Counted from the stretch's first letter, positions 6,632-51,167 are shown. The stretch: DNA of 64,000 nt from a virus (IMGVR_UViG_3300037479_000183), one strand, 5' to 3'. The notes: generated from the letters alone by a model not told the origin. Numbers and translations: made by a program.

Positions 6632-8950
6632 TTATGGCGCTCCACTTTGGTCTGGAACCTTGCGTTTGAAATCTTCGGCATCTTGAGTATAGACATTCAT
6701 ATTGTTAATATAATAGTTCCCTCCACCAGGGCCGCCGGCCCCCCACTGCCTCGCCCGTTCGCTTTCGGCGTAGAAGAAACCAAGCAAGCCTGCTACAAGG
6801 GCTACTCCAACGGCTGCGCCTGCAATTCCAAGCTGGCGAATGGCGGCTCCCAAAGTTTCGGCAACTAATGCTGAAATAATTGCGGGAATTAGAATGGTTG
6901 TAATCTGTATAGCAAGCATGACAAGCAACTGCCCCGCATCTCTGGCGGCCATTCCCATCAAGAACATCTGCCCACCAAGCATTGTCAGGCCGCGAGCGAG
7001 ATTGATGGTAGCTACGCGGAATGATTTGCTATCTCTAGCAAGCTCGCGGAGGCCGACGCCATAAGCCCTGGCGTGGCGAATTCCATTCGCAACCTGAGCA
7101 CTCCATTCGAACAAAGCTTTATAATTGATATTGAATACCTTAGAAAGTAGAGTGAACGTTATCACAGCGTTGGCGCCAGTTGCGCCGAGCATGTTGAGGA
7201 AGTTTACAAGTAGGCGGAGGATGTTTAGTCCGGCATCCATAATGCCCCAAAGCGCACTCTGTTCACTAGTTAGCATCTTAACAAGTGTGATGATTTCGGG
7301 CAACATGGCGCGGATGCGCATAAGGAAATGAAGTATCATTTGTCCAAACTGCGTGCTAATGTCTTTTCCTAACAACTCTTCATAGAATGTTTTAAAGAAA
7401 TCTCGCGCCACATCAGTAAATCCACGGAATAAGAAAGGCGCCCTGAAGGCTTCTACAATGCCTGTTATATAAGATTTGATTGATTCTAGATTTTCCTTTA
7501 CCATCAAATCTAAGTCCTCCAATGGCCCGCGTGATTTATCTACCAATTCAATAAACTTATCGAAGTTTTGAGCCAGTTGGATAATTGCGGTTGCGGAACG
7601 AATGTTCAATCCTTCTAACATTTTTTGAAGAACTGTAATATCTCCACGATTTTCTTTAATAACTTTAGATAATTGGCGAAGAACATCAACGAAATCAAGT
7701 TGTCCATTAGCGTCTAGCTTTACTTCAACACCCAATGCCTTCATCGCCGCCGTAAAGCCAGGCAAATCGCTTGCAATGTCACTAAACGCCTGTCGCATAT
7801 AACGACCAGCAATCGATGCTTCAAGACCTGTATTAGATAACACAGCGAGGGCAGCACCAAGTTCGTTGATATCGATGTTCAATAGAGCCGCCAGGCCACC
7901 AGCGTATTTGAATCCCTGCGCCATATCTTCGAAGTTGGCAATAGACTGATTGGTGAAGTATTGTAGAATCTCAGCCACCCTCGAAGCCTCTGTAAACTTC
8001 ATGTTCATGGCTGTGATAATCTTTACCAAATCTTCGGCTGCCAAACTCATATCGCGCTGGTTGGCAATCGATAGACGCAAAGCGGCGTTGAAAACATCTT
8101 GAGATTCGGCACCTCTTACACCAGCTTTTGCAATTGTAACATAAGCTCGGGCCATTTCGTCGCTGCTAGAACGGAATCGAACTGCCAGCGCGGCAAGTTC
8201 GTTTTGATATTTTCTAGTAGTCTCAAAAGTCCAACCCAATTCTTGGTTAATGGCAGCAAAGACGTGCATGGCAGCTTCTACATTTGCCCCCACAGTTGCG
8301 AATCCAATCGCCAAAGCGATTGCCGCCCCGCCGCCGATAAGTGCAAGCGTGGCGAATCCCTTTATCAATTCGCGCACCGCCGGCAGCACGCCCTGTGTCA
8401 TCTCAATCGTAACAGCTCGCAGGCCAACCTTCTCCCACCTTGCCGCCTCAGCAGCAGCCAAGGCCTTGGCCGCAGCTAGCCTTTCTACTTCTTTGCTTGC
8501 CAGGCCTGCCGAGGCTTTTAGTTTGTCCATTTGAGCCGTTACTCGGCCCATTGCCCTTTCAGCTAGAGCCATTTGATTTCTGGCCCGAACAAGGCCGGCA
8601 TTATCCTCCAAGGCTGCTGCATATTTCGATGATGCCAACGCTTTATTATAGCGCAATTGGGCCGCTGCGTGTTGCTCTTGCAACTTAGCCATTCGTGCCG
8701 TGTATGCATCAGCACCAGGCATACCTTTCAGGGCCGCGCCATATTCATCAACAAGACCACGGGCGGCCATTGCTTTTGCATTCGCAGCTTCGGTCATTGC
8801 AAAAACGCGTGATTGGAAAGCGCCCATCGAAGATTCAACTTGACGGAACACAGGCGTGGCTGCGTCGATGGCGACGATGCTAAATGCCATCTCGCTTGGT
8901 GCGCCGAGGCCATAAAGGCCGTAGCTTGCCGCTCTACCCAGACTCGGCAT
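6632..8950 (-). CDS. Tail tape measure protein (TP901-like core)
   Basis: 772 aa, Ala-rich and helical; motifs AQGFKYAGGLAALLNIDINELGAALAVLSNTGLEASIAGRYMRQ; hydrophobic C-terminal helices; follows the chaperone genes. Confidence 0.92.
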   Translation of the reverse strand: MPSLGRAASYGLYGLGAPSEMAFSIVAIDAATPVFRQVESSMGAFQSRVFAMTEAANAKAMAARGLVDEYGAALKGMPGADAYTARMAKLQEQHAAAQLRYNKALASSKYAAALEDNAGLVRARNQMALAERAMGRVTAQMDKLKASAGLASKEVERLAAAKALAAAEAARWEKVGLRAVTIEMTQGVLPAVRELIKGFATLALIGGGAAIALAIGFATVGANVEAAMHVFAAINQELGWTFETTRKYQNELAALAVRFRSSSDEMARAYVTIAKAGVRGAESQDVFNAALRLSIANQRDMSLAAEDLVKIITAMNMKFTEASRVAEILQYFTNQSIANFEDMAQGFKYAGGLAALLNIDINELGAALAVLSNTGLEASIAGRYMRQAFSDIASDLPGFTAAMKALGVEVKLDANGQLDFVDVLRQLSKVIKENRGDITVLQKMLEGLNIRSATAIIQLAQNFDKFIELVDKSRGPLEDLDLMVKENLESIKSYITGIVEAFRAPFLFRGFTDVARDFFKTFYEELLGKDISTQFGQMILHFLMRIRAMLPEIITLVKMLTSEQSALWGIMDAGLNILRLLVNFLNMLGATGANAVITFTLLSKVFNINYKALFEWSAQVANGIRHARAYGVGLRELARDSKSFRVATINLARGLTMLGGQMFLMGMAARDAGQLLVMLAIQITTILIPAIISALVAETLGAAIRQLGIAGAAVGVALVAGLLGFFYAESERARQWGAGGPGGGNYYINNMNVYTQDAEDFKRKVPDQSGAP

Positions 8951-28258: not shown

Positions 28259-28632
28259 ACTCCTTTGAAAGCTGCTTTATCCGCCACGGTTCCATAATTT
28301 CATAGAAGCCGCCGCACGCAAAGCAGAGGTCGGGAAAGGGTTGGCAGCCTTTACACAGCGAGACTTTTATTTTCTTCGATGGACGACCCAGGTGACCGGG
28401 CCCGCAATTGGCGCACTCGCCTTCATTAGCCCGCATTTGCCACATCCTTCTTCCAACTATAGCCACACCTGTTACAGGTAAGCTTTAGATGTTCGGTTGT
28501 ATCGAACATGTCTGGACGACTGTCTGTTCCAGTATAATTTTCTACATATCGATAACGACATCCGGGAAAGGTGCATTTCGGACACAGGTCGGCTCCAGAA
28601 GTATAATCCGGTAGCCAAACACTCCCCGTCAT
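28227..28632 (-). CDS. Two small Zn-ribbon proteins (28227-28466, 28426-28632)
   Basis: CxxC pairs. Confidence 0.55.
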
Positions 28633-35755: not shown

Positions 35756-35883
35756 ACTCCGCGCCTTGCCAGATGATATAGATATAGCTGGGCTTGGCCT
35801 GGCAATGCCAGCAGGTTGTTGGGCTGGGCCGCTTCTCTACGCGAAGCATTCTTTCTAATAAGTCTTAAGTATATATTCGCGGG

Positions 35884-36090
35884 CTAGTATATAAAGGTTC
35901 CGGCCGCGCCGGGCCCTAACGGACGTGGGCCTGCCAGGCCTATAGGCAGGGGGCCTAGGCCTGGCCGGGCCTTACATATGCGGGTTCCCGTATAGTTAAC
36001 ACAGCGCGCTCTTGACTGTTGTGGGAAGAACCCACTGTAGTATATTTCCAGAAGAGTATCTCCGTTAGGCGGGTTTCCTTTATATACTAG
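35884..36090. promoter_or_regulatory. Divergent TATA pair forming a perfect 14-bp inverted repeat
   Basis: CTAGTATATAAAGG at 35884-35897 and its exact reverse complement CCTTTATATACTAG at 36077-36090. Confidence 0.75.
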
Positions 36091-36983
36091 GCACAGAAAC
36101 GCGTATAAAACTACAATTTTGCAGAAATAACCACAAAAATCGCCCAAACGTCGTTTCCCTCGTGTTCGGAAAAATCCTGCGCGCCTGTGAAAAAATTCAT
36201 CTATAATCGCACAGAATGCCATTAGATGCGTTCCAGCTGACCAAACCACCAACATCCTAATAAGCTTCCGCCCCACAAAAATCTTTAAGGTGGATTGCCC
36301 CGACCCACGCTCTCAAAACGACTCGCTAGCCCCCCTAGGGGCGTTTTACAAATGTAAAGGGGAAAGGAAAGGGGGAAAGGCTAGGGTGTCCATTCCCTAG
36401 CGTCATAGGGGGTCGCAACCCACTTGCTTTTGTTCCACGGGCCACGCCGCCCCACCCGGCCACCGTCGGCTAGCGTCAGGCTTGAGCCTTCTTCCCTCGC
36501 CGGAAAGATGATTCCCGCGAAGCCCACTCCAAGCCCCGTTTCCACGGCTACCGTTTCTGGGCAGGCCCGGCCCCGATGATAGGTTCGGACGTGATAGGGG
36601 CATCGGTTGTAGCCTGTTTCGTTCCTGCGCTTCTGCCACGCATCCATATAGCAGGATGGACAAATCTTTGTAAGCCCATCCCGCCCGCACCTGTCGCACT
36701 TCACCAATTGCGTCATAGACTCCAATACTCGCCTGACCATATATAGTTTGTGTCGCCCAGCCGACACTTATATACCCCATCTACGAAAATCGTAGTCGCC
36801 CCACATATATAAACTTTTGCCTAGCCCGGCTCGGCCCTGCCGCCGTCAGACAGGCGGCTGACGAGCGTCAGACTTCATCTTCGTCGTCCCAATCGCCCGA
36901 TTCGTCGTAGGCATCGTAGTGGTCAGAGTCCTTCCCGCCCTTTTCCTGCGCCTTTGGGGTCATAGACCTTAATGGGGGTCAGG

Positions 36984-39671
36984 GTATATAAAGTTTTGTC
37001 CGATGGGTGAAACTACTCAAAAACGCGTAAGGGGGAAGGGGGGCGTCAGACAAACGTCCTACGCCTGTCTGTCAAACTCCTGCTCTAGTTCCTCCTTCAA
37101 ACTGGCTTGAAGTTCCGCCATCGCTCGGGATGCCTTCATTCGCGTTAGGTAGAAACCCAACTGGTCGGCCAGTTCCCCAAGACTCTTGAGTTCCGCCATC
37201 GCCCTTGCCATCGCCTCATTCATCAACGCCTCATCGTCCATATACCTCAATGGTCGTCAAAGTATATGAAGTTTTACCCCATCGGTGAAAGTTTGCGACC
37301 CAAAGGGGTTTACCACCACCCGCTAGACGTTCCACGCTTCACGGCAATCTCCGCGCTTACCGCCAAGCACCGTGCCATCCCGATGGCGTTAACCGCCACC
37401 GCCTTCTTCGCCTGCCACTCGGGGCAATCGCGCATCCCGCCCCAACCCAATTCCGCGTATTCGTCGCATATCTCGCACATAGACCCCAATAGGTCGGTGG
37501 GGTATATAATCTTTTGCCCTATGAGTGAAAGACTCCACCCGGCGCGCGTCTATATAAATCTTTGCCTGCTCGCAACAGCGGGCGCTGTGATAAACTTTAT
37601 GTAGTAGCGCAAATCGGCCAGCGGGCTGGGCTTATAAAACTTTCCCTGCCCGCCGTAGGTTCTCCTCTCTCGTTACCTGCTCTAAATGCTCTGGGTTGAC
37701 GCAGAAGGTTCGGCGGCATAGGTGGTCAAGAGTCAGGCCCGGCCTGATAGGCCCGGCTAGCAACTCATATATGAATCTATGCCCAATGCGAACCGCCCCG
37801 TTTGCCCAAATCGCGGCGTAGCCGTGTCTCTCCGCGCCGCCCCAAATCCAGCAAGGCGTAGCCAGAGAGCCGCGATAGCGGCGTATCTTCCGCCTCACTC
37901 GCTCCGGCAATTCTCGGTAGTCCATCTTTTCACCTGCTACCCCATTCGCCTCAAGGCATATAAAGATTTGCTCGATGAGTGAAAGTAACATCGATTGGCA
38001 AAACTTGATATAGTTACACAGCGCGGCGCTGGGCGGGCGTGGGGTATATAAAACTTTGCTCGTCGGCCTGTCGGCTGACGGAAGATGGAAGCGGCGTCGG
38101 ACGGGCGTCCGACTAGTGGAGAATACCCAACCGAAGCAGGTTGTCCAGAATGAGTCCCCGCGTTCCGAACAGCAACTCCAACTTCCTCTGCTGGACGTAT
38201 TGCCTGTATTGCGGAAGCGACTTCATTTCGTCGATAATCTCCTGAAGTTTCGCTTCCTCTGCCGCCGCCTTTGCCTTTGCGAATTGCTCCTCGGTTATTC
38301 CGCTCATACTACCCCATACCCATCGGGGCACATATACTTTTCCCTTCCGCGACGCCATCGCCCGCATATATAAACTTATGCGTCAAAGTCGCATTGGCCG
38401 CGTGGCTTCTGTGTTCGCCAGCAAACTTGAATTGCTCCGTTTGTATCAAAGCGCAGACTGATAGGCGCACCACAAACACAATGCCCATAGGCGCATCGCC
38501 AGCCTTGTGTGAGATACGCGCCGCATAGGTCGCATCGCATAGGTGCTAATGGCTCTGTGGGTATATAAAATTATGCTTCAAGGCGAAGGCGCTCCGGGCG
38601 CTATATAAAGTTATGCTCCCGCGCCGCTGTGAAAACTTTTATATAGAAACGCAAAACGGAAATGGGAGGAAGGATATAAAGGTTTGCCTCACAAGCCCGC
38701 CGCCTTCAACACTAAGGCGACGATTGGCCCGGCCAGCAGGCACAGAAGAAGGTATATAAAGATTTGTCTCTCAAACTCCTCGGGCGGCGCTCGGGTGAAC
38801 ACGGTTACCACCCTTCCGCGTATCGCTCGCGCCACGCCGCGAAGTCGCTATCCTCACCGTCGCCGCGCCACTCCGACGTATCGACCGCGAACAACTCGCC
38901 CGCCGGGTCGCGCACCTGCGACCCTGCGTAGTGTATCATTCCCGCCGCCGTCTTGCCCTTCGCGTCTATCACCAGCATTGGTTTCACCTACCCCTTAATG
39001 GTCGCCGTAGTATATCAACTTTTCCCCAATGAGTGAAAGTTTGATAGGCATATAAAAGTTTGCCTACCAGCCGTCGCGGGCGATACATTCGCCGCACCCA
39101 AAGGTGCGGGAAGGGTGTTTCTCGGCGTGAAGGCGGCGCTTCAACTCCTTCTTGGTTTCCGCCATCAGCCGGGCCGCGTCATCGGCGCATACGTCGCAAA
39201 GCGCCACCTTTAGAACCTCAACATCCTCCTCAATCGAGGTTTCCATCGGGTTCCTTGGCGCGATGCTTGGCGCAACCGGATTGACGTAAAGCGCCCTCAA
39301 CTCACCGCACTCCGCGCAGGTTCCGTAGCCCTTTATCACGTTCAATTCCACTTTCATCTTTTTACACCTCACCCTGCTATGGTCGTCGCGGTATATGAAG
39401 TTATGCTCCATTGGTGAAAGTAAAAAAAGGCCCGCCACCGTTCTACTTCTTCTTCGGCGGCGGCACCAACTCTCGCGCGGGCGGCGCGTTTCGCGTCCAG
39501 AACGAAACGTAGTGGTCGAACCGCGCGGCTATCTCCGCTTGCGTTCCGCCCTTCTTTTCGCACCACTCGCGCAACTCTCGAAGTCGTCTTTCGTAGGCAC
39601 TCTCTCCTATGGGGCTCACCATACCACCTCAACAACATCGAAGTATATAAAGTTTTACACAATGAGTGAAA
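36984..39671 (-). promoter_or_regulatory. Seven archaeal-type promoters, each with an upstream TTTCAC(T/C)(C/G/A)AT motif at fixed spacing
   Basis: Plus-strand AT(G/C/T)(A/G)GTGAAA at 37003, 37281, 37521, 37975, 39029, 39410 and 39662, each 19 bp from the G preceding (T/C)ATAT(A/G/C)A. Confidence 0.8.
37632..37925 (-). CDS. HNH endonuclease (HNH_3-like)
   Basis: CWIW..GY..HRFIYELLAGPI..LDHLCRRTFCVNPEHLEQVTREENLRR. Confidence 0.92.
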   Translation of the reverse strand: MDYRELPERVRRKIRRYRGSLATPCWIWGGAERHGYAAIWANGAVRIGHRFIYELLAGPIRPGLTLDHLCRRTFCVNPEHLEQVTREENLRRAGKVL

Positions 39672-39680
39672 CTACTCAAA

Positions 39681-39706
39681 AATGAAAAATGGGGGCCGAA
39701 GCCCCC
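39681..39706 (-). terminator. Hairpin terminator with a cUUCGg tetraloop
   Basis: Minus strand GGGGGC-TTCG-GCCCCC followed by ATTTTTCATTTTT, just after the stop at 39719. Confidence 0.7.
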
Positions 39707-40405
39707 TTGCCGCCCGGCCTAGCCGGTGGCCCGCTTGATGGCTTTTAGGATGGCGGCCTGCTTTGCCTTCTTGCTCGCCTTCTTTGGCAAGCCTAGCGAA
39801 GCGGGCCAAAGGCCCGACTCCTTGGCCCGCCTGCCAATCCCCGCGACGGGGACGATAGGCGCGGCGGCCTGCTCCTTCCGCCTTCCGTCCTCAACTCCGG
39901 TCGTCCGAAGGTCGTCATCGCTGATGTCGTGTTCGGCGTTGAAGTCGGGCAACTCGCCCGTCGCCTGCGGCCCGCGCCCGGCCCGGCCCTTGGGGGCCGC
40001 CTCTAGCCACGGCTTCAACTCCGGCGCGAAGGTGTCCGTTGGCTTCGGCGCTCGCTTCACGACATAGGCAATCAACTCCTTCTCCTGCTTGGTTGTCATA
40101 GACCCCAGTAGGCGTCCCAACTATAAATAGTTTTACACAGCGCGCCCTTCGCCCCGGACGGTATATAAAGATTTGCCCTATATGAACTTTTGCCCGCCCG
40201 CCGCCCGGCCCGCATATATAAACTTATGCCCAGCCCGGCCTGCCGCAAGCCTTATATAGAAGGGCAAATCGGTTTTCCGGGCCGATATATAAAGCTTTGC
40301 CCAGCCCATCCGTCCGCCCGCCGTCAGACACTCGCCGCGCCTGTGTCAGACAAACATAAGACGCAGAAGAATTAAAGGGAAGAAGGAAAAGTCGGCTTAG
40401 ACTCG

Positions 40406-41824
40406 CTACTTTCGAGTCTTTTTCGACTTGCGGGCCTTGGGCTTGCCCTTCCCGCGCTTCGGCTTCTTTTGTGCTCGCACGGCTTCGCACTTGGCGCAAC
40501 AACACCAAAGCTTAGGCCGCCTGACGTGAAGCCCCAAGACGGCGAAGCATCCTTCCGGCTTCTGTGGGTTCGGCTTCGACGGAAGGCACCACTCCACGCC
40601 GGGGCAATGGGCCGCCTGATGCTTGCGGTTTCTCGCCCGCAACTTGGTGATGCTTCCCGGTTTCTCCCGTTCAAGCACCAACCAAGACGTCGGTATCTTC
40701 CGGTCGATTGGCGAGAGGACGCCGTGAAGGGTTCCGCGCTTCCCTTCCACGTCATACGCGATGCTCCCATCCTCTAGGTTGATGGCAGATACCCTTACTT
40801 GCCCCCAGAGGTCGCGTAGTCCCTTCGGGCCGGGCGAAGGCATCCGACTTAGGGCGGCGTCATAGACGATTTGCCTTCCCGTCTTGTTTGCGTTTCGTGC
40901 GCGGTGAAGGTTCGCCACAATCCACGCCGGAACGTCGGTAAGGCGCACCTTACGCAACTCCGCCGCTATCTTAGGGTGTCCAATCCTCTCAAGCCACCCT
41001 TCGACCTTCCGCCCCGTTTGGGTCGCATCGACGCCCGCAAGCACTCGCCGGAACCTCTTGATGCTTCCCGCCGCCGCCACCTTGGGGATGGGTTGGCCCG
41101 CAAGATAGGCGAGGGGTCGCCCTTGAGGGGCGGCGATTGCGTAGATGCGTCGGTCTGCTTGCTGGCCCGCCAAGCCTTCGGCCAAGGCCGCCGCTTCTTC
41201 GGCGTCAAAGTCGCCTTCATTGTCGGCTAGGATGGCTTTGGCCCTCTCGCCCGCCGCGTCTAGGCCGCGTTCCGCCAAGTAATCGACGGTTCCATCATCG
41301 GCACTAGCGTGTATGTTGGCGGTTTCTTCCCACTCCACGCCAAGCACTTTACCGCCGTTCATCGGCACGTCAGCCGAGCACCTGACGACACTTCGACGCC
41401 CGACGCTTACCGAATGGTCACAACCGGGGCGAGAGCATTTCGTCATATCGTCCTTACTCTCTAGCCGAGAGCAACGGCTAACGACAAACGACTCCGTGCT
41501 TCGCACTTCGCGGTTAGTGTTGATGCTAACCCACTTGCCATCTACTAGCTTCCCGCCCTTCTTGGCGTCCTTTACCGCCTTCGCGTAGATGGCGGCGAAA
41601 GGCACCGTTTCATCTTTCGGGATGCGGGCCTTGGCCTGAAGCACCGTCGCCTTCCAGCCTTCGGGGCTTGGCGTGATTATCACGCGGCCCTCTCGCGCAA
41701 GGGCGGCGGCGGTTCGCGGGAACCACTCGCCCGATTTCGCTTTCGACGTAGCCGCTACCAACACAGCCACTAGCAAGCACAGCGGCCCGAGTCCTGCTAG
41801 CGCGCTTCCGATTTCTGCCGACAT
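40406..41824 (-). CDS. 472-aa basic hypothetical protein with Cys/His clusters
   Basis: Long ORF with an AGGTG RBS, upstream TATA cluster and downstream TTTCCTTCTT tract. Confidence 0.7.
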   Translation of the reverse strand: MSAEIGSALAGLGPLCLLVAVLVAATSKAKSGEWFPRTAAALAREGRVIITPSPEGWKATVLQAKARIPKDETVPFAAIYAKAVKDAKKGGKLVDGKWVSINTNREVRSTESFVVSRCSRLESKDDMTKCSRPGCDHSVSVGRRSVVRCSADVPMNGGKVLGVEWEETANIHASADDGTVDYLAERGLDAAGERAKAILADNEGDFDAEEAAALAEGLAGQQADRRIYAIAAPQGRPLAYLAGQPIPKVAAAGSIKRFRRVLAGVDATQTGRKVEGWLERIGHPKIAAELRKVRLTDVPAWIVANLHRARNANKTGRQIVYDAALSRMPSPGPKGLRDLWGQVRVSAINLEDGSIAYDVEGKRGTLHGVLSPIDRKIPTSWLVLEREKPGSITKLRARNRKHQAAHCPGVEWCLPSKPNPQKPEGCFAVLGLHVRRPKLWCCCAKCEAVRAQKKPKRGKGKPKARKSKKTRK

Positions 41825-42084
41825 ACTTAGGCACCTCTGACGACGATAGGCGGTATGAGTATAAATAGATTTGCCCGCCGCCCGACGTAGGCCCGCAGGC
41901 CGCCTTCGCCCGCGCCGATATATAAACTTCTCCCCTATATAAACTTATGCCTGCCTGCCCGTCGTCCATTTGTGAGAACAACGCTTACGAATATAAACTT
42001 TTGCCCGTCCGACACTCGCCCGCGCTGTGTCCGACACCCATCAGCCAAGCCCGGCCTGCCTGTCAGACAAATGGCGGCCCGGCC

Positions 42085-42180
42085 TGTTATATAAACTTAT
42101 GCTCTTTACATTTGTAAAGTTATATTCAAATGGTTTTTATAAAAATGTTACAATATTAATTTTACAATTGTAAAGTTGGA
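42085..42180. promoter_or_regulatory. AT-rich island with palindromes; candidate replication origin or operator cluster
   Basis: TTTACATTTGTAAA 42105-42118, TTTTTATAAAAA 42134-42145 and TTTACAATTGTAAA 42161-42174, inside GC-rich flanks. Confidence 0.5.
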
Positions 42181-43475
42181 GCGTCAGACAATCGTCAGAA
42201 TAAGCGACTTTTATAATAATCACAGAATCCGACTAACTGCGTTCCGGGATTTTACGTCAAGACTTGACGATTCGGTATTTAAACCAATCGGCGGGCCTTT
42301 TCGTCGCCGCTAGAGATGTCTGACAGTGAAAATCGTTTTTCCACAGTCTTTCGACGGTCGCCGCCAAGGGCTAGGGCTTCCCCTAGTCAGGGGCGGGCCG
42401 CCCGTTAGTCGTCGGGCGCTTCAGGCCCATTCCCGTTAGGGGGCAAATGACTCTGACGGAAGCCTTCGGCTTCTGCTGAAACAGTCCCCCGAGGGAATCC
42501 GTAGCGATGCGGATTCGGCGCTTCCGAAAGAAAACGGATTCGTCGGAATCGACCTGAAGGTAAACAAAGGTATAGGCTGGAAATGAGCCAGCCTGCCATC
42601 CCGCAAGAGAGGTGCGAAATGTCGCCCAATCTTGGCCTTGACGATTCATTTTCGTGGCTAGAGGGATTACCAGAACGCCACCATATCCCCCGGAACGGAA
42701 AGGCCCGGCCTCGGACTCGGAGGCCGCAAGCGTTCCGTTCTGAGCAGTATACCATTTTGGGGATACTGCTGGCCCAATAGTAGAGAGGCCCGGCAATACT
42801 GCCCGGCCAATGGGCCTGATTGGGGGTCAGCGGAGCATTGACCGGCCCCGCCATCGCGCAAGCCCGTAAGGGCTGGCCGGCCAATTGTAAGAGCGCCCTA
42901 TCAGGACTCGGCGGCTAGGCAGGCCGGAAGCAGGCAACCGGGCCGAGCGTTTTTTGGTGGGCAGGCGTGGGTGTTTATAAAGGCTTAGACCCCACCCTAA
43001 CGGATTCGGAAGTAAACAGGGTATTTAAACTACCCGCCCGCCTAGGCACCTCGCCGGGCCTTGCCCAACAGGGCTTGCCCGGCCTTTCCTTTTATGGCAA
43101 GCATAAATGAAATCGTCGAGGCCATCCACGCGGCTTGCCGTCAGGCGGCCATACCGGAGGCCAAAGGCGGGCTTGGCGAGGACTTGGCATACCAAGTCTT
43201 GCTTCGCTTGCTTGGGGACTTCGGCAAAGCGGCCAAAAGGCGGTATGCCGCGATGGAGTGGGAGAGGCCGATTATCGTCGGCCTTGGGTTGGAAGCCTGT
43301 ATCGGTTGAAACCGGGCTCGGCTACTAACGGACACAGCACGGTGATTTACTCTTACCGTTAGGCGGCTAAGGCCGCCAAAAGTCGCAGACTTTATGCTTA
43401 ACGATGGGCCGGGTCGGTTCTTCGTTAAGAAAGTCCCCGGTGGGGACTTAGTGCCAAAACACGGAGCGTGCGAAA

Positions 43476-47197: not shown

Positions 47198-47662
47198 ACG
47201 ATGAAGCCAAATCTGCCAGCGATTGAAGCGTTTGTATTGGAAAAGCACAAAGTTGTGGGCCACGACGCGGCGTTGCGGTGGATAGCCGCGCCCGCTGTGA
47301 TAACCAACATCGACAACGAACCTTTGCGGCTGGCCTTTATCGCCGAAGTGGAACACAAAACTTCATACGGATTTGAAGTAGAAGTGGCGAGCCATCAGGT
47401 TTCGATTGAGTTGGCAAAGGCAAGAGGTTGGATATGACACATACGCTAGCATCCATCAAGTTCGCCGTGTGGTGTGATGATTGTTCGGGTGGTGGTTACG
47501 AGCCGTATTGTATAGTCAATACGCTTGAAGAAGCGGAAAGGGAGAAGAAACAACACGACAAATGGCATAGGAAGTGAAATATGTTTTGCGAACAATGTTG
47601 GGATGACCACATCCCAATTCTGTCCAGCGGAACGTGTAAGTGTCGCTGTCATAGAGGTGGAT

Positions 47663-48789: not shown

Positions 48790-51167
48790 CCACCCTTTGG
48801 GACGCCAAGATTGCGACTTTGCCAAAAGACGACGCGATTGAGATGATTAACTGTGTCCAAAGGACGCAAGAGATTTTTCACAACATCATCTACGAGAGGA
48901 TAAAGGGTTGGTTCCTTACCCATTCGGTCGATGACTTTGAGAACGGGCTTGATGGCGTGGAGATAGAACTAATTGTATATGTGATGGCTTGGCTTAAAGA
49001 CGCCTATTCAATGCCCGAAGAAATCGCGCGCCCTGTGTCCTATTGGTATGCGAAGAATTGGGTTGAAGGATTGCGCGGGAAGGTGGAAAGGTGAAGTGGA
49101 TAAGCGATAATGTTAGAACAGTTTTCCTCGACAGGGATGACAATCTAGTAGATGATGGGGCGTGTCGAGAAGGATTGCTTGGTAGTGAGAGGGAGAAGTG
49201 GTTTGCGCTGGAGATTGCTACCGTTAAGATGTTTGAGAAAGGCCCGCGAAAGGATGAAATGGGCGACCTTGCTCATAGATTTCTCTTTGAGCTTGTTCCG
49301 ATTGAATATTCGTTTGACGGCAGGATAGAGGGATGGGATGGCAGAAAGACTAAGCCGCAAAACACCCTTACCATTCCCCTTTCACCCGCAAGGCGGAATC
49401 CGCTTCAAATCTCCACAATTATTGGTATAGCAAGAACGGCCTTCTACCTAACTCGCTCGAAATCTAAGGATGTGGAGAAGGACGCAAAGCATATCCTTCG
49501 TGCTTGGAATATAAGGGATTTGCGGAAGAAAATGTGGAGGCTTGCGAGCATATGGGTGAGAAGCATTGAGGAGATTGGTTATGAGTCAAACATTTTCAAC
49601 AAACTTCAATTACCCATAGCTGAGTATGTCCTAACGGAAGCCTTCCCAGCGAAGGAACTGTTTGGCGAATACTCCAAAGGCAGGTTTGTTAATTGGAATG
49701 GTGTGGCAAGCAGGCCGCTGGCTAAGTTTGTGAAGGGCCGCTGGCCGAAATGGGAAAGGGTTGTAAAGGCCCTAGTTAATTACTGTGATTGCGGTTGCTG
49801 TAATGGGTGTAATGGAGATTTGGATGAGGGTGATTTTGAATGAGGCTAAAGGCCGCCATATTTGTAGATGGTGAAGTTGCTTGGAAAGACCCCGGAGAAG
49901 GGGGCTGTGGGGCGGTGTCCTGCCGGGGGCAGTTTGTCCCCCACCTTTTTGGTCGAGAACCGTATCGCCGCCGGAATGACTTTGGTTGGTGTATCAGGGA
50001 GCCGATTCGTAAAGTCATAAAGGAGAAAAAGAATTGGACTTTGGGAGTTTTGGCAGAGCCAAATACTTATAATTCATTTCACTTTGAACATCTCAATGCT
50101 ATCAACTCTGCGCTAGGCGGGGCGGCAAACGTCAAGCAAAGAGTAACCGATGGTAGATATGTTGGTTGGGATGGAGTTAGCAAAGGGAAAGTAACTGTCG
50201 AGGCGGAGATTGTATTTGCCCATCCTATTTCATATCTTCCAAATTACGTCGGCGGTATCATTGGATTTGTTCGAGATGTTCTACAGAGAAAGAATCAACC
50301 GTTTGGTTCTTTGGAGAATTATTCGCAGGGGGCGAGGGCGGGTATGGCCGACCCCCATTGTATGGAAATCGTTGGGTGTTGCGAGCCACCATATTTGGAA
50401 TGGCTCCTAACGCAAACGAATTGGAACCTCCCGCGCGGCGGCAGTTTTAAGGAGTGGTGGTCGGCAACAAAAGGAGTTTACTATCAATCTGACCGCCTCT
50501 TTCATCACGAATACGCCAAGCACGGTTTGCGAAAATCTGAATTTAGGGCGTGGGTGAGGGAGAAATATCCTGAGTGGTGGGAAAAGATGGCAAAGAGGAA
50601 CGGAGTTGAAGTCTAATGGGCAAATCACTATTTGATACTTGGAGAGAGAAGTGGCCCACGTTAGAGGAAGCTAAGGAAAGAATAGAGAAAGCGATTCAGA
50701 AAACTCAAGAAAAAGAGGAGATGGTAAAGAAAGCGAAAACGGTTACAACTACCGCCACGACAGCCGTTAAGCCTTCCTCAGTTGGCGATGCCAACCTTCA
50801 GGCGCTTGCGGAGTTGGTTGGAGAGGCGGCACTAGAACCCGACAAACCCGAAAGGAATACGCCGCAGGGTGTCAAGGATTTATATGATGCGGTGATGGAG
50901 TTTATCAAAACTGACGTTACTCCACCTATTACTGCCGATGCCAAAACGGTTCAAGACAATATGATTCTTGCTGAAATTGAAGGAGTTTGGGACATAGCCA
51001 ACTCAAAGAACAATGCGTGGGAGTATTTTACACAGCGCGTTGTGGAGGAGATAGACCAGATTCAGGAAATAAACATTACGTCGGGACTTCAATGTTCTTG
51101 GAATCATCTATACAGACGTTTGCGACAGCTTGCGATTGAAGCAGGAATGAGTGCGGTGAAAGTATGA
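48786..51167 (+). CDS. Four coupled hypothetical proteins (48786-49094, 49091-49843, 49840-50616, 50616-51167) leading into the ligase cluster
   Basis: Overlapping start/stop junctions; no recognisable family. Confidence 0.7.

Follow-up and report, generated by a model that had tools for sequence, protein, structure and literature searches.

Face-to-face TATA-box pairs among the early genes of an uncultured archaeal tailed virus as candidate crossed bidirectional promoter modules

The 64,000-nucleotide (nt) stretch of viral DNA IMGVR_UViG_3300037479_000183 (the window, always meaning the whole stretch) contains five pairs of TATA boxes that face each other on opposite strands, each composed of a plus box and a minus box. 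These facing pairs are real and non-random. We tentatively interpret them as crossed bidirectional promoter modules in which the rightward arm would be a non-coding, antisense or competing transcription unit, an interpretation to which we give a little less than an even chance. Gene content and promoter motif point to an uncultured tailed virus of archaea: the promoters are of archaeal type, and the window has genes for a large terminase, a portal protein, a tape-measure protein and an archaeal-type LonB protease. GC skew and gene direction both change at ~42 kb. The pairs are located in a leftward early-gene block (35800-42150, minus strand) with ~13 tiny open reading frames (ORFs) and ~30 consensus boxes that combine a B recognition element (BRE) with a TATA box. 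This block is GC-richer (54-59% GC, from ~35.8 to 42.1 kb), and all its ORFs are orphans except one HNH endonuclease (37632-37925, minus strand).

The spacers between the early ORFs are crowded with one motif, GGGCAAAAC-TTTATATAC, which is nearly restricted to this block within the window. In a logo of 29 minus-strand boxes, the information is confined to positions -9 to +7 from the first T, with G at -7, an invariant A at -5 and -3, and then TTTATATA; no -35-like element is conserved. This logo equals what we take to be the classical methanogen promoter consensus, AAANNTTTATATA. In nine gene-proximal copies the first T of the box precedes the ATG by 28-30 nt, so the corresponding messages would be leaderless, and in four others a GGTGA-type ribosome-binding site precedes the start codon, which is at +39 to +43. 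The leaderless genes served as an internal ruler for the TATA-to-start distance (+29/30 from the first T). Boxes were scored with a matrix trained on the 29 minus boxes only, which gave one hit of at least 13 bits outside the block in 115 kb of strand positions. Seven minus-strand copies form 'class-1' cassettes (first T at 36992, 37270, 37510, 37964, 39018, 39399 and 39651) in which TTTCACYNAT precedes the BRE at a constant distance, and three of them come directly after a T5-T7 run, such as TTTTTGAGTAGTTTCAC. Bacterial sigma-70 promoters were considered, as the class-1 cassettes hold a TTCACT-17-TATACT match, but this reading was dropped because all information in the 29-box logo resides in the contiguous BRE and TATA box, without a conserved -35.

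All five pairs described in an earlier note on this DNA were located, with inner gaps of 26-32 bp and centre-to-centre distances of 39, 35, 40, 35 and 35 bp for pairs 1 to 5. The comparison with shuffled sequence that the note had proposed was in their favor: when the intergenic spacers were permuted and the minus boxes held fixed, 0.09 ± 0.30 independent plus boxes were expected, against the five observed. These five are the only independent plus boxes in 36.7-40.35 kb, the other plus hits being palindromic shadows of minus boxes, and no further facing pair at 25-47 bp occurs anywhere in the 64-kb window. A spacing as tight as observed has a P of ~2.5e-4 for five boxes dropped randomly into the spacers, a value that overstates independence because the modules around pairs 2, 4 and 5 are copies in register. 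The gap reported in the note (27-32 bp) is not peculiar to facing pairs and reflects the general pitch of neighboring boxes: in the box stacks of 36.7-40.4 kb, which hold 2-6 promoter boxes between genes, 12 of the 18 neighbor spacings are 35-40 bp versus 1.5 ± 1.2 by random placement, and this pitch holds for tandem, back-to-back and facing neighbors alike. Tandem promoters overlap as well, the upstream start landing in the BRE of the next box. The spacing drops to 17 bp in two neighbor pairs, 40169/40186 and 41926/41943.

The pairs differ in their parts. The plus box of pair 1 (36767-36775, with 8-mers starting at 36767/8; CTTATATAC) is intergenic, consists of a TATA box without BRE and lies upstream of a zinc-ribbon ORF (36381-36716). 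It faces a minus-strand 'orphan' promoter at 36806-36822 (box 36806-36813; AGGCAAAAG-TTTATATA, 25 bits) with no credible ORF behind it, and a palindrome at 36781-36795 (CTACGAAAATCGTAG) has its centre 2 bp off the pair midpoint. The possibility that this plus box is coding sequence was rejected: ORF 36403-36780 translates to low-complexity sequence, and the overlapping ORF 36381-36716 encodes a CxxC zinc-ribbon protein that starts at +29 of its own box. In pair 2, the plus box (37596-37603; TTTATGTA) is preceded by CGCTGTGATAAAC, a marginal BRE, and the minus orphan promoter (37631-37647, box 37631-37638; AGGGAAAGT-TTTATAAG) overlaps the stop codon of the HNH gene. Pair 3 combines a plus box at 38005-38012 (GGCAAAAC-TTGATATA), equal in quality to the gene-proximal promoter 39018, with a minus promoter at 38045-38061 (box 38045-38052; GAGCAAAGT-TTTATATA, 23 bits). 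The plus box of pair 4 (38638-38645; CGCTGTG-AAAACT-TTTATATA) fits AAANN-TTTATATA exactly and faces a minus orphan promoter at 38673-38689 (box 38673-38680; AGGCAAACC-TTTATATC, 21 bits). Pair 5 comprises a plus box at 40251-40259 (8-mers starting at 40251/2; CTTATATAG) with a weak or partial BRE (CGCAAGCC) and a minus orphan promoter at 40286-40302 (box 40286-40293; GGGCAAAGC-TTTATATA, 25 bits). Back-to-back with the plus boxes stand left-hand minus boxes (together spanning 36738-40222, first T at 36745, 37558, 37964, 38609 and 40222), at 29-48 bp centre to centre.

The TATA half of all five plus boxes scores 8.0-13.8 bits as an 8-bp match to the local consensus TTTATATA. With the full matrix, box 38005 reaches 17.8 bits, 38638 14.2 bits and 37596 8.5 bits, boxes 36767 and 40251 score 1-2 bits, and the minus boxes score 15-27 bits. 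As the TATA cores are near-palindromic, direction must be read from the BRE. The BRE-like purine runs that had been noted on the outer sides of most pairs are present at all five minus boxes (6.9-12.3 bits), but on the plus side a strong one occurs only at 38005 (8.0 bits). Box 38638 keeps A-5, A-3 and G-7, yet has a BRE score of 0.4 bits; the three remaining plus boxes score -1.2, -6.1 and -8.5 bits, and box 37596 has a T at -5. The virus's own upstream signature, AAANN-TTTATATA, is found among the plus boxes at 38005 and 38638 only. The combination of TTGATATA and an AAAAC BRE recurs in the gene-proximal promoter 39018, and CGCTGTG-TAAAAC-TATTTATAG makes up the gene-proximal promoter 40129, whose ATG is at +30. 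By these sequence features, 38005 and 38638 should be competent rightward promoters and 37596 would be a marginal one, while 36767 and 40251 are probably weak or silent.

Application of the +29/30 ruler changes the picture of how the two promoters of a pair relate. The earlier note had each promoter initiate on top of the opposing TATA box, but every predicted start falls 4-11 bp short of it, and the two predicted starts of a pair have already crossed: they point outward and are 11-19 bp apart. A pair would therefore be a crossed divergent promoter rather than a convergent one. Since the predicted RNAs of a pair share no sequence, no sense/antisense duplex would arise from the pair itself, and a role as antisense-RNA generator within the pair, also put forward in the note, loses its basis as the predicted RNAs are non-complementary. 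An antisense effect could be directed against read-through from the upstream gene. A full archaeal initiation complex covers roughly -40 to +20. The two complexes of a pair would need the same ~60 bp and should exclude each other, so that the proposed mutual exclusion agrees with the geometry.

The location of the plus boxes indicates what a rightward RNA would encounter. Each plus box comes shortly after the stop codon of a minus-strand gene, whose 3' end it faces; a rightward RNA would consequently be antisense to the gene or to its read-through. Plus boxes as promoters of plus-strand genes were rejected, as no ORF lies at a usable distance: no ORF of at least 35 amino acids (aa) starts at +28 to +43 of any plus box, and the nearest starts are TTG codons at +46 and +51 that open shadow ORFs. 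The plus boxes are confined to the five longest spacers, none of which has a minus-strand T5+ run, and plus boxes are absent from the three spacers that contain T5-T7 runs, one of which follows a perfect GC hairpin. Based on 11 junctions, the complementarity between plus boxes and T-runs is weak and only suggestive (hypergeometric P ~0.12).

The repeats were grouped into families D1-D12. Modules 2, 4 and 5 are copies of one ~75-bp unit in perfect register, and the five pairs are thus not independent events. Between these copies, identity is 0.70 in the BRE, 0.79 in the TATA box, 0.28 (random level) in a 13-nt spacer, 0.93 in the block CCGWTTTGC and 0.80 in the central box. Conserved blocks split by a randomized spacer point to selection on the blocks. 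CCGWTTTGC occurs in three copies only in the window, all on the minus strand: CCGATTTGC in module 2 (37609-37617, at +21 to +29 of the minus orphan promoter), CCGTTTTGC in module 4 (38651-38659) and CCGATTTGC in module 5 (40264-40272).

A further motif, CGCTGTG, abuts the BRE at plus boxes 37596 and 38638 (in the latter case at 38625-38631, plus strand) and at minus promoter 40129, which is gene-proximal. The window contains 36 copies of CGCTGTG versus 6.5 ± 2.5 expected, and eight of the extended form CGCTGTGWWAA versus 0.06. Copies are located at, for example, 7159-7169, 28350-28360, 35996-36006, 40132-40142, 47293-47303 and 51027-51037; CGCG often precedes the motif, 25 of the 36 copies are co-oriented with the local genes and many are found at gene junctions. 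CGCTGTG may have a regulatory or polarity role across the genome. Palindromes with arms of 5-6 bp are present in three of the five inter-box spacers versus 0.5 expected (P = 0.005). The palindrome CAGCGGGCGCTG (37576-37589, plus strand) overlaps CGCTGTG directly upstream of plus box 2, and between the boxes of pair 3 a minus-strand CGCTGTG is found with the palindrome CAGCGCGGCGCTG (38017-38031). In module 3 the flanks of the central element are inverted relative to modules 2 and 4: GCCAATCG is the near flank and CGCTGTG the far one. The HNH gene, which has its own class-1 promoter, is flanked by the window's only two CAGCG..CGCTG palindromes (37576-38031) and bracketed by oppositely oriented central elements, an arrangement that suggests a mobile insertion into a module.

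In the reading we prefer, an intergenic module of 70-110 bp is repeated, and the plus boxes would be its AT-rich central cores. Along the minus strand this module would run from a strong orphan consensus promoter over the variable 13-nt spacer and CCGWTTTGC to a plus-oriented box, often beside CGCTGTG, followed by one or more further minus promoters and the next small gene. It would be one configuration of a lattice of ~30 BRE/TATA boxes placed 35-40 bp apart in any orientation. With each TATA box just downstream of its partner's start, TBP, TFB and RNA polymerase would assemble in either direction but not in both at once. Activity would be expected of 38005, 38638 and perhaps 37596 only. From these boxes a rightward non-coding RNA would enter the 3' end of the upstream early gene in antisense, and the likely effect would be that leftward early transcription is damped or insulated by promoter competition combined with head-on antisense transcription.

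Several observations weigh against this interpretation. Two to three of the five plus boxes have no BRE, and the most conserved block of the module is CCGWTTTGC rather than the plus box; its conservation is at least equally compatible with a site-specific factor or with the region where the orphan promoter initiates. The orientation of module 3 is ambiguous, its sequence being consistent both with a canonical plus promoter and with a minus-oriented copy of the element. The 35-40 bp pitch is independent of orientation, which suggests a constraint on factor binding and not on transcription direction. Downstream of the plus boxes, neither a plus-strand ORF nor an RNA recognizable with Rfam was found, and the searches for relatives described below yielded no related virus carrying the early block for a comparison of conservation.

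The orientation-independent pitch is the starting point of two alternatives. The boxes could mainly be TBP/TFB sites set at the closest spacing that allows co-occupancy, irrespective of orientation, which would concentrate or sequester the host's initiation factors on the entering virus genome. This is unlikely in our view, though it accounts for ~30 consensus boxes serving ~13 genes with many boxes lacking a gene, for the 12 of 18 spacings at 35-40 bp whatever the orientation, for the pitch that plus boxes share with tandem minus boxes, and for the near-absence of the consensus from the rest of the window. Against it, the 17-bp pairs 40169/40186 and 41926/41943 cannot both be occupied, the two BRE-less plus boxes would be poor TFB sites, and the conservation of CCGWTTTGC and CGCTGTG is left unexplained. 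A related view, which we hold to be somewhat less probable still, is that of a fixed-pitch lattice with sterically exclusive neighbors, in which the facing pairs would either allow promoter choice among several states or act as a sink for host TBP/TFB. In another reading, CCGWTTTGC - N4 - AT-rich core - (N) - CACAGCG would be the site of a putative viral or host regulator over the start region of the orphan promoter, or a conserved 5' leader of the RNA from that promoter, with an incidental likeness to TATA. We regard this as improbable, to about the same degree as factor sequestration. CGCTGTG and the palindromes keep an operator function of the central element alive, as do the high identity of CCGWTTTGC, its restriction to three places in the window, the excess of CGCTGTG and CGCTGTGWWAA, the inter-box palindromes (arms of at least 5 bp) and a sixth copy of the element (36175-36215) that has a degenerate AT core and no facing box. 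On the other side, all five copies of the AT core keep a good TATA score and one or two also a canonical BRE, the element lacks dyad symmetry, and no candidate regulator was recognized among the orphan ORFs.

It is also rather unlikely that the plus boxes are decayed or inverted, functionless copies of promoter repeats, produced by cassette recombination and insertion of the HNH gene, whose spacing was inherited by duplication. The register of modules 2, 4 and 5, the loss of the BRE at 36767 and 40251, and the position of the HNH gene (37632-37925) between opposed central elements and CAGCG..CGCTG palindromes would all follow from such a history. However, the spacer has drifted to 0.28 while the central box stays at 0.80, which argues for selection and not for recent duplication, and five plus boxes stand against 0.09 expected. 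The proposal of the earlier note that convergent pairs act as bistable switches or in sense/antisense RNA pairing appears very improbable. The boxes do face each other and their complexes must overlap, but the predicted starts are crossed, the RNAs share no sequence, and only two to three of the five plus boxes look competent; moreover, bistability requires feedback, of which no sign and no regulator were identified.

Facing promoters are familiar from bacterial systems. Coliphage 186 (pR/pL) and IS10 (pIN/pOUT) reportedly have facing starts with transcripts that overlap by ~62 and 36 nt, respectively, leading to collisions or antisense pairing. The pairs described here resemble them in that promoters face each other over tens of bp and would hinder each other; they differ in their non-overlapping predicted RNAs and in relying on archaeal TBP/TFB instead of a sigma factor. 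Regarding direction, Bell et al. reportedly demonstrated in 1999 that the BRE sets the orientation of archaeal initiation complexes. As in that work and in the shared-box cases of halovirus HF2, the cores are near-palindromic here, with a BRE that is clear at 38005 and 38638 and missing at 36767 and 40251.

Our full-text literature searches returned no paper on face-to-face or convergent promoters in archaea, and the earlier note stated that no element of this form has been described. This statement has to be narrowed in view of HF2, which has intergenic repeats with BRE/TATA promoters and conserved extra blocks upstream and at the start site, and whose class II repeats retain about half their activity in reverse orientation (PMC8707807). 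Its outward-pointing starts T-17022 and T-17064 are separated by 42 bp; their TATA boxes, at -24 and -28, lie close together and are crossed by ~10 bp as read from the legend of Figure 4, and T-40936/T-40979 represent bidirectional use of a near-symmetric TATA box (PMC8707807). HF2 is, like the present virus, an archaeal tailed virus with repeated intergenic BRE/TATA units and conserved blocks at the start region. By analogy, we consider it the closest precedent, and the present pairs appear to be of the same kind, crossed much further: the predicted starts are 11-19 bp apart and the boxes 35-40 bp, the arrangement recurs five times, and the pairs are embedded in stacks that reach six boxes and keep a constant pitch. 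In contrast to the shared-box cases, where one box serves outward starts ~43-52 bp apart, two separate boxes face each other. The two viruses have no DNA sequence relationship, and neither homology to the HF2 repeats nor membership of Haloferacalesvirus was found. For halovirus phiH, antisense control of early lytic transcripts is on record, here as cited in PMC8707807 (Stolt and Zillig 1993). The likeness consists of a viral RNA directed against an early transcript, as the rightward RNAs proposed here would be. Guide-RNA arrays of the TIGR type, with 36-nt units (PMC12045711), were dismissed as a model: the stacks are not long dual-repeat arrays, although no search for a Nop-domain protein was made.

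Relatives were sought at several levels. BLASTn of 36000-41000 gave no match in 50,697 deposited phage and archaeal virus records, and tBLASTn of the terminase retrieved two distant phages only. The contigs that encode terminase homologues measure only 2.4-7.3 kb and do not extend as far as the early block, and LonB had no match in the reference genomes. The class-1 cassette pattern was absent from the viral contigs, and one metagenome match to it (L001), which looks eukaryotic, was rejected as a chance hit. A 472-aa early protein (40406-41824, minus strand) is a complete orphan without a Pfam or PHROG family. It had no homologue among 1.84 billion representative proteins in an exhaustive search, a search of 5.8 billion proteins matched only itself, and no match was found in the viral contigs. 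Its other copies reside on an identical 3.9-kb contig (L002) and on a second contig with an identical protein and the same gene order.

The remainder of the block and its right-hand border hold further features. Rfam matches in the window are limited to three tRNAs, with no other known RNA family. Between two early genes, a bacterial-style intrinsic terminator (GGGGGC-TTCG-GCCCCC followed by ATTTTTCATTTTT) is located at 39691-39706 on the minus strand. The stretch 35860-36400 has no convincing ORF and contains odd boxes, among them TTTATATAC on the plus strand at 36079, which has no BRE, and TATAATCGCACAGAAT, similar to TATAATAATCACAGAAT at 42211; this stretch could be a source of non-coding RNA. 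The perfect palindrome TTTACAWWTGTAAA occurs three times (36345-36358, 42105-42118 and 42161-42174) versus 0 expected, and two of these copies fall within the AT-rich strand-switch region 42100-42240, likely an origin or master-operator region. Seven copies of GTCAGACA were counted versus ~1 expected (36845, 37045, 40323, 40345, 42062 and 42183 on the plus strand, 42317-42324 on the minus strand). Those at 36845, 37045, 40323 and 40345 are located just 3' of minus-strand ORFs, often within short hairpins, and the three at ~42.06-42.32 kb are close to the strand-switch region; GTCAGACA may act as a terminator or stability element, or as a site for a factor.

We know of no archaeal virus with its own RNA polymerase, so host TBP, TFB and polymerase must be won, and to our knowledge little is known about how archaeal viruses capture host transcription early in infection. 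If the plus boxes are silent, the present finding would shrink to dense promoter repeats, as already known from HF2. The pairs would offer compact templates of ~100 bp. With existing in vitro systems, these could show in what way direction is set by BRE strength, how archaeal promoters that overlap compete with each other and whether an array of promoters works as a factor sink. Should the promoter-choice or TBP/TFB-sink lattice prove true, it would represent an undescribed mode by which a virus takes over archaeal transcription.

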